Assembly: GCA_035697485.1 (NCBI GenBank)
Contig: DASSCU010000049.1
Span: forward strand, 15,195-79,194
Source of the DNA: Actinomycetota bacterium
GTDB taxonomy: Bacteria; Actinomycetota; UBA4738; HRBIN12
DNA: 64,000 bases
Direction: 5' to 3'
The notes under the pieces were generated by a model that searched no databases, had not been told where the DNA came from, and worked only from the letters and a program-made list of their open reading frames with translations. Shown piece after piece: positions 61,105 to 61,123 of this stretch; the first letter of the stretch is position 1; every line of letters starts with the position of its first letter. A program made the translations under genes and the position numbers.

Positions 61105-61123
61105 CTAGTCTAAAATAGACTAG
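61105..61123. promoter_or_regulatory. 19-bp AT-rich palindrome CTAGTCTAaaaTAGACTAG (site C)
   Basis: It has 8-bp perfect arms and a 3-nt spacer. It contains the TAG stop of the lipoprotein gene 61120..61887 and lies 30-60 bp upstream of the nurA-like start. It is a near-twin of site B at 40974. Confidence 0.5.

Follow-up and report, generated by a model that had tools for sequence, protein, structure and literature searches.

Winged-helix regulators of the PadR family and their operators are the closest described parallels to the element reported here, a 19-bp palindrome found at gene ends in a 64,000-nucleotide stretch of an Actinomycetota genome (contig DASSCU010000049.1, assembly GCA_035697485.1; the whole stretch is called the window), with one copy immediately upstream of the DNA-repair operon nurA-herA-sbcDC. 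Subfamily 1 regulators such as PadR, AphA and VanR bind palindromes as homodimers, with half-sites approximately 13-14 bp apart at a fixed spacing, and the PadR dimer of Bacillus subtilis binds the palindromic padC operator at a half-site separation comparable to that described below (PMC5728393). AspA, an archaeal centromere binder with the PadR fold, acts in DNA segregation, and its structure in complex with DNA has been solved (PMC5728393). NapM (Rv0047c) of Mycobacterium tuberculosis, a subfamily 1 protein of approximately 182 aa with pleiotropic, non-local effects, has been described as a mycobacterial nucleoid-associated PadR-family protein and reported to be restricted to Mycobacterium; the NapM study mentions no binding motif or palindrome for it. 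Inverted repeats at gene ends and between convergent genes are also a feature of intrinsic terminators and conserved-sequence 3' hairpins. Repetitive extragenic palindromes, bacterial interspersed mosaic elements (REP/BIME) and GTAG-tagged palindromic repeats lie at the 3' ends of genes, as short palindromes from which the preceding gene can take its stop codon; REP/BIME-type repeats occur in hundreds of copies and are degenerate and variable between strains. High-GC Actinobacteria have few canonical terminators, and how transcription is ended or insulated at their packed and convergent genes is a standing question.

The palindrome of the window resembles a PadR-family operator in its symmetry and in its adjacency to padR genes in other genomes, where the box lies in the regulator's own promoter region and the regulator has two domains and some 180 aa, yet it fails to overlap a promoter at most of its sites. 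Most actinobacterial boxes are located on stop codons or between convergent genes, the motif is CTAGTC-N7-GACTAG in contrast to the CATGT/ACATG-type padC operator, the associated protein shows unusual conservation, and each genome has many sites in place of a local regulon. NapM is the closest solved structure to this protein by sequence (PDB 8JXK, E=1.7e-10) and is likewise actinobacterial, although no more than about 30% of residues are identical, the match falls in the N-terminal domain, and the likeness is one at family level. Unlike a terminator, the palindrome has a weak, AT-rich stem of fixed sequence with no U tract and is also found in padR promoters; unlike REP/BIME-type repeats, it is low-copy, exact and conserved in position across species. 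In the literature on PadR, convergent genes and nucleoid proteins we found no description of this arrangement, nor any of the motif itself or of PadR boxes at gene ends, and searches with the motif string returned primer-type matches only. We propose, with a probability of roughly 0.6, that two copies in the window, sites C and B, are double-stranded DNA sites for a dimeric PadR-family winged-helix regulator of the two-domain subfamily 1, which would act at gene junctions.

Occurrence and Conservation of the Palindrome

Site C (CTAGTCTAAAATAGACTAG, positions 61105-61123) is a perfect 8+3+8 palindrome with the core CTAGTC-N7-GACTAG and is a putative binding site for a PadR-family protein. A search of the window for the palindrome at up to two mismatches returned site C together with site B (CTAGTCTGAATCAGACTAG, 40974-40992) and site A (CTACTCCAAGATAGACTAG, 11668-11686), the last being degenerate, with one mismatch in the 12-base core, and lying inside a longer inverted repeat; no strand is assigned to any of the three. 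Sites B and C have in common the 7-bp arms CTAGTCT/AGACTAG and the 19-bp span, as the original prediction had stated for a palindrome just upstream of nurA-herA-sbcDC. Its further argument, that two such copies are unlikely to arise by chance, is borne out by dinucleotide-preserving shuffles of the window, of which 0/100 gave a match at up to two mismatches. The window has a GC content of 71% and holds 15 CTAG tetramers, five of which fall in sites A, B and C. At all three sites (3/3) the TAG stop of a minus-strand open reading frame (ORF) lies within the right arm. When the flanks of the three sites were compared with each other, no similarity was detected among them.

For a wider census, one genome per species was scanned for CTAGTCTRNNNYAGACTAG, a pattern that forced T and A at positions 7 and 13; it gave at least 120 loci, and all census counts below are counts among the matches listed. 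At least 56 sites belong to metagenome-assembled genomes (MAGs) of high-GC uncultured Actinomycetota/Actinomycetes, nearly all with the sequence CTAGTCTG-NNN-CAGACTAG, and several of these MAGs contain multiple sites. MAG CAVPIB has at least seven perfect sites in 1.41 Mb, i.e., about one per 200 kb as a lower bound. Sites also cluster locally: the window has three within 50 kb, and one CAVPIB contig has three within 100 kb. Acidobacteriota and neighbouring phyla contribute a second class with the sequence CTAGTCTAAWTTAGACTAG, and the remaining matches are unrelated hairpins in Acinetobacter and elsewhere. An Obscuribacterales MAG carries the palindrome CTAGTCTAAATTAGACTAG within a tandem array of at least nine copies of a repeat of about 53-54 bp (L021:32-694), which is unrelated to the actinobacterial sites. 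No further copy was found at up to three mismatches in 424 kb of DNA flanking the other actinobacterial sites, and none of 2.9 million viral contigs scanned contained the motif.

The census, which had been suggested together with the original prediction, revealed the motif at orthologous loci across many genomes of uncultured high-GC Actinomycetota. Site C has an ortholog in locus L077 and site B in locus L099, in both cases with the arms kept at the same position. Other recurrent loci are metG (11 loci, with rsmI upstream in several), the convergent ddl/parB junction, ilvN/ilvC, an aminotransferase gene and a thiolase gene. Motif positions are shared across species whose MetRS proteins are only 57-86% identical, which indicates that the sites are old. 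In L034 and L117 a thiolase gene ends at a box; the thiolase gene of the window was checked for the same arrangement, and no box follows it. The genes downstream of the sites have no functional theme in common (metG, ilvC, acyl-CoA dehydrogenases, GNAT, UspA). Clustering of 484 neighbour proteins gave no recurrent DNA-binding gene near the actinobacterial sites and returned synteny blocks only (rsmI-metG-tatD-rpf, parAB-ddl).

We then followed the nurA locus across 24 metagenomic loci that had been picked by protein similarity, blind to the motif; two of them (L128, L131) had no usable upstream sequence. Among the usable nurA orthologs, every one at 89% identity or higher has the motif, with intact arms, at the corresponding position, as does L133 (86%). 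The position of site C is conserved in L077, L121-L127, L129, L130, L132, L133, L136, L138 and L143. The motif is decayed in L134 and L135 (86%) and absent from orthologs of 80% identity or less. While the arms are fixed, the central five nucleotides at this locus are variable (ATTTT, GATCC, GGCCC, GGTCC, AATTC, GAGCG, GAACG, GATAG, AACGC, AGTCG) and the surrounding intergenic DNA diverges, with insertions and deletions; this combination of fixed arms, free centre and divergent flanks points to sequence-specific recognition of the arms at a fixed distance. Across the high-GC occurrences the spacing of CTAGTC-N7-GACTAG is invariant (74/74), with a spacer of always 5 nt between the 7-bp arms. 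Positions 7 and 13 occur in all four combinations (T-A, C-G, C-A, T-G) and positions 8 and 12 are often unpaired; the half-sites thus vary independently, which speaks against base pairing and in favour of a protein that reads duplex DNA. In the symmetrised logo, A/T is preferred at positions 9 and 11 (symmetric A/T in 41%), which are unable to pair in a hairpin.

Known palindromic elements of chromosome maintenance and DNA repair did not account for the motif. The LexA SOS box of Actinobacteria is TCGAAC-N4-GTTCGA, a consensus that the palindrome does not resemble. No 16-mer similar to parS (TGTTTCACGTGAAACA) is present in the window, and the same genomes have canonical parS sites of their own in the parB and metG loci, separate from the motif, so the motif was also rejected as a parS variant. 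Perfect parS sites are located near parB in L014 and L047, and a conserved parS-like 16-mer, TGTTTCACGTGAAGCT, differing from the consensus at two positions, is present about 1.7 kb away from the motif in metG loci (L018:2247, L048:3669, L066:2928, L038:3176, L044:3604, L102:183).

Placement at Gene Ends

We examined the gene context of 58 high-GC actinobacterial sites, including two from the window, using a gene caller based on GC content at third codon positions that was built for this analysis. The sites comprise 23 convergent junctions, 25 tandem junctions, 2 divergent regions, 6 intragenic positions and 2 unclassifiable cases. The intergenic DNA of the same loci amounts to 6.5 kb in convergent junctions, 25.5 kb in tandem junctions and 11.9 kb in divergent regions, and relative to this the sites are enriched approximately 3-fold in convergent junctions and depleted approximately 7-fold in divergent regions. 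A gene end lies within 35 nt at 47/50 classifiable intergenic sites, and at 32/50 the stop codon falls within the motif itself, usually as TAG at positions 2-4; at six sites both convergent genes terminate in the two arms. Recoding of UAG by pyrrolysine or another form of UAG readthrough was ruled out as the reason for this overlap, because convergent genes abut the motif on both sides.

At tandem junctions the motif is placed tightly against the upstream stop, with the downstream -10 element or start codon anywhere from 0 to 189 nt away. In the metG loci the distance from the motif to the leaderless -10 element ranges from 13 to 40 nt, a spread that rules out a fixed operator geometry relative to the metG promoter, and in L034 the box sits between two cistrons whose stop TAG and following ATG are 15 nt apart. 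The motif is therefore tied to the stop codon of the upstream gene and not to the geometry of the downstream promoter. The promoter overlap typical of PadR operators is not seen, as site C ends 23 bp upstream of the -26 element of the nurA promoter described below and most other sites lie on stops. Elsewhere in the window, the convergent genes at 12589-13488 (plus strand) and 13485-15209 (minus strand) use a single overlapping CTAG at 13485-13488 for both stops, which shows how compact convergent junctions are here; such a shared CTAG is possibly the evolutionary seed of a CTAG...CTAG box.

Association with PadR-Family Genes

In approximately 18 loci from Acidobacteriota, Gemmatimonadota and Vicinamibacterales, the palindrome occurs in short divergent promoter regions beside a PadR-family gene, the partners in these acidobacterial-class loci being a VOC/glyoxalase gene and/or a small Cdd1 helix-hairpin-helix gene. 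In Actinomycetota locus L081 the motif lies 31 nt upstream of a gene for a 182-aa PadR protein (PF03551), and when seven further actinobacterial padR loci are included a box is found 19-74 nt upstream of the padR start in 8/8 cases; among the seven, two have a second box and two are in divergent regions. Searches with the 182-aa protein gave 537 homologs, and the best 120 of the 537 are all 171-193 aa long and 66-97% identical; the few among these 120 that are named by organism are Actinomycetota MAGs. Two MAGs hold both a padR gene with its own box and boxes at gene ends. The L081 protein is homologous to the PadR proteins of the 18 acidobacterial-class loci at 26-39% identity. The half-site centres of the motif are 13 bp apart, forming an inverted repeat of fixed spacing as recognised by winged-helix homodimers.

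As the same regulator family is encoded beside the same palindrome in several phyla, a PadR-family dimer is the likely binder, a reading that draws on gene neighbourhood, and the position of the box in the padR promoter suggests autoregulation. The original prediction had envisaged a shared regulator connecting the acyl-CoA carboxylase/glycosyltransferase locus near site B with the repair operon near site C. The common factor survives our analysis: judged by sequence, a single specific factor almost certainly recognises both sites, and a PadR-family protein is the best candidate. The specific connection between the two loci does not, as the sites are found genome-wide after unrelated housekeeping genes (rsmI/metG, ddl/parB, ilvN/ilvC).

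Two features of the padR loci were seen in addition. In L035, L046, L086, L064, L069, L105 and other acidobacterial loci, genes for PadR, a VOC/glyoxalase protein of the bleomycin-resistance type and Cdd1 form a cassette around one or two copies of the second-class palindrome, which looks like an uncharacterised stress or toxin-response module. A gene for a HAD-family hydrolase always follows the actinobacterial padR gene, and a conserved ORF of approximately 130 aa without a Pfam family usually comes before it; in L152 (9940-9983) and L153 (9909 to about 9955) the padR promoter contains two tandem boxes, of which the second is degenerate (CTGGTCC...).

A PafBC-Type Promoter between Site C and nurA

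PafBC promoters, also termed RecA-NDp promoters, have the consensus tGTCgg(N10)tA(N3)T and no -35 element (PMC8635444). On the minus strand between site C and nurA we found the arrangement TGTCGG-N10-TACGAT-7 nt-ATG (61050-61081), in which the -26 element TGTCGG occupies 61076-61081, the -10 hexamer TACGAT occupies 61060-61065, 7 nt upstream of the ATG, and the nurA start codon is the ATG at 61052-61050. This is an exact match to the consensus, also in lacking a -35 element, and places the nurA promoter in the PafBC class. Given the position of the ATG, site C ends 52 nt upstream of the nurA start, in agreement with its predicted placement directly ahead of the operon. The palindrome itself is no PafBC site: the promoter, which accounts for the control of the repair operon, is a separate, non-palindromic element that begins 23 bp downstream of it.

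The promoter block is identical in L077 (91% identical overall), and the GTC triplet and the -10 element are kept in every nurA ortholog down to 65% protein identity, with the -26 element identical or nearly so throughout. In orthologs of 65-80% identity the PafBC-type promoter persists without the palindrome. The exact match and this depth of conservation therefore indicate that the repair operon has its own damage-response promoter. The spacing of the -10 element to the ATG implies a leaderless nurA transcript, and the predicted leaderless promoter implies that nurA-herA-sbcDC would be inducible by DNA damage.

Proposed Mechanism and Alternative Explanations

If a PadR-family dimer is the binder, each monomer would read one arm, CTAGTC(T/C) or (A/G)GACTAG, at fixed spacing and leave the central 5 bp unread. 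This lineage of uncultured soil Actinomycetota would use a highly conserved 182-aa PadR with the same box in its own promoter, together with further boxes at orthologous positions, from about ten to a few tens in each genome, nearly always on or just after a stop codon. The junctions occupied would be those between convergent genes, those between cistrons and those from a gene end to the next promoter. At site C the box covers the stop of the upstream gene, and the PafBC-type promoter drives nurA-herA-sbcDC. The bound protein would most likely act here as a barrier or insulator limiting read-through from the upstream gene into the damage-inducible operon; the box is probably no core promoter element, and relief of the barrier by a ligand is conceivable. 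The HAD hydrolase gene beside padR and the VOC/Cdd1 partners in Acidobacteriota suggest a small molecule or a genotoxin as the signal. Comparable barriers may stand ahead of independent promoters (nurA, metG), between cistrons (L034) and between convergent genes. We consider it possible rather than probable, and offer it as a tentative extension, that PadR began as a local, autoregulated repressor and was recruited to act at gene ends throughout the genome, as a bidirectional and possibly ligand-switchable barrier that either insulates transcription units or stalls polymerase before the stop and so tunes down the upstream gene, serving as a protein-dependent counterpart of terminators where canonical ones are lacking.

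Several points weigh against PadR binding at gene junctions. The window contains no padR homolog, and we therefore infer from its relatives that the source genome encodes the 182-aa protein. The argument rests on PadR adjacency in other phyla, whose PadR proteins are 26-39% identical to the actinobacterial one, a likeness at family level, and the box beside actinobacterial padR genes could in principle be one more conserved site that happens to neighbour a regulator gene. Boxes at padR genes mostly have C at position 7 and those at gene ends mostly T, although this difference is partly due to ascertainment, because the census forced T there. Placement at gene ends and between convergent genes is unlike that of a classical PadR repressor. 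Moreover, a protein bound over a stop codon should halt transcription before the end of the reading frame and leave a truncated upstream mRNA, an effect that is hard to reconcile with a constitutive barrier. Either the protein gives way easily or this truncation is itself the regulatory output. With at least 120 loci in the census, both the copy number and the set of sites are lower bounds.

Two of the alternatives retain a DNA-binding protein. The palindrome could be a classical operator from which its regulator represses or activates nurA-herA-sbcDC at about -62, and the cupin and glycosyltransferase genes at site B, as one true regulon. In its favour, 15 related loci keep the box upstream of nurA, and the centre of the box falls at about -62 relative to the predicted leaderless start, a position that upstream activators use; the box abuts the cupin start codon in L099, and the same box in other phyla controls a padR/VOC (bleomycin-resistance-like)/Cdd1 cassette that could respond to DNA-damaging toxins. 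We nevertheless regard this as unlikely, as 23/50 sites occupy convergent junctions, where there is no promoter to act on, and just 2/50 are divergent, the distance to the downstream promoter is variable where that to the upstream stop is tight, the PafBC-type promoter is kept without the box in more distant orthologs, and the downstream genes lack a common theme. An architectural or centromere-like role, in which a chromosome organiser similar to AspA or NapM would bind stop-rich sites that settled where they do least harm, also seems rather improbable to us. It would suit a PadR that is very highly conserved and constant in length, unlike typical local drug sensors, and whose closest solved structure is that of NapM, as well as the precedent of AspA as a PadR-like segregation protein (PMC5728393), the avoidance of promoters, the local clusters, the conserved site at the parB/ddl junction and the parS-like sites near the metG site. 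Yet there is no sign of spreading or bridging, the sites listed for MAG CAVPIB amount to about one per 200 kb as a lower bound, the similarity to NapM does not extend beyond the winged-helix domain, and the status of NapM as a nucleoid protein has been questioned by its own authors.

The remaining alternatives do without such a protein. An RNA element, also raised in the original prediction, would make the transcribed hairpin CUAGUCUG-NNN-CAGACUAG a terminator, a 3'-end stabiliser or a processing site. Placement at gene ends and between convergent genes is typical of terminators, the hairpin folds better than shuffled sequences (z = -4.2 to -4.3), and site A is part of a longer stem of -24.5 kcal/mol. 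The stem of the motif is weak for a 71% GC genome, however, at -5.1 to -9.6 kcal/mol, and no U tract follows, with no T enrichment beyond position +1, which excludes an intrinsic terminator. A structured RNA fares no better: the arms are invariant and show no covariation or compensatory change, all four combinations at positions 7 and 13 occur, including C.A mismatches, and positions 9 and 11 tend to symmetry despite being unable to pair. Rfam contains no family matching the window at gathering thresholds, and locally at E<=10 gave only a meaningless miRNA match. With the same sequence also functioning in promoter regions beside padR genes, we consider an RNA-level role very unlikely. It is harder still to believe in a selfish repeat, related to REP or to miniature inverted-repeat transposable elements (MITEs), or in a transposon footprint with CTAG target-site duplication inserted at TAG stops. 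The CTAG on either side of an 11-bp core does look like a 4-bp target that was duplicated, 32/50 sites have the stop within the motif, and convergent genes in the window can share one overlapping CTAG (13485-13488). Against this, positions are orthologous across species with MetRS identities down to 57%, spacer length never varies, and the 424 kb of flanking DNA yielded no extra or degenerate copy. The motif was absent from the viral contigs scanned and is not accompanied by a transposase, and the flanks, whose conservation had been proposed as a mark of a mobile mini-element, proved unconserved. Low copy number, conserved positions and unrelated flanks likewise exclude membership of the REP/MITE class.

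Should the PadR reading hold, a conserved protein site on stop codons would provide a testable handle on transcription at packed gene ends, comprising one protein, one 19-bp box and a few dozen loci. A large, so far uncharacterised PadR clade, as well as the acidobacterial padR-VOC-Cdd1 cassette, would also gain a likely operator. The promoter adds that nurA-herA-sbcDC of this lineage appears to be wired to the PafBC damage response through a predicted leaderless start. If the box is an ordinary operator or a parked decoy site, the outcome would be a modest regulon annotation only.

Genes around the Palindrome Sites

The gene upstream of the repair operon, read as an ORF of at most 255 aa (61120-61887, minus strand), ends inside the right arm of site C with a TAG at 61122-61120, which appears as CTA at 61120-61122 on the forward strand; the palindrome does, as predicted, include the stop of a minus-strand gene. 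Its product matches no Pfam or NCBIfam family, and we take the gene to be real because the ortholog in L077 is 82% identical. The operon follows on the same strand. The nurA gene (60093-61052) encodes 319 aa and herA (58354-60096), whose start overlaps the nurA stop, about 580 aa (a 581-aa protein). Neither product has a Pfam or NCBIfam match; they match the NurA (E=5e-24) and HerA (E=1e-121) chains of PDB 7F6D, the solved HerA-NurA complex of Deinococcus. They are followed by sbcD (57160-58335; Pfam Metallophos and SbcD_C) and sbcC (54651-57173; Pfam AAA_23, SMC_N and SbcC_Walker_B). These structural and Pfam matches support the operon name nurA-herA-sbcDC that had been given from the sequence. 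Directly downstream of sbcC, a minus-strand gene (51493-54441) encodes a protein of about 980 aa with only weak coiled-coil (SMC/Rad50-like) and HisKA-like matches, which is possibly a further member of the repair operon.

Site A tops a much longer inverted repeat (11648-11706), and this region of the minus strand folds at the -24.5 kcal/mol given above as RNA. On one side lies a DUF4397 gene of the plus strand, which ends at 11576, and on the other a putative minus-strand ORF, small and hydrophobic (11683 to about 11871), the reality of which is uncertain.

At site B, the right arm contains the TAG stop of a small minus-strand ORF of 89 aa (40989-41258) that comes after the carboxyltransferase gene; it matches no Pfam or NCBIfam family and has an ortholog in L099. 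Directly downstream of the palindrome lies a minus-strand cupin-domain ORF (40645-40953; Pfam Cupin_2 and AraC_binding), which has no ATG, GTG or TTG from the palindrome to residue 54 and for which we assign the CTG at 40953-40951 as the start. The corresponding codon in the L099 ortholog is an ATG 2 nt past the motif, and the window has 18 extra bases between the motif and this codon, so the cupin ORF either uses a rare CTG start or is a decaying gene.

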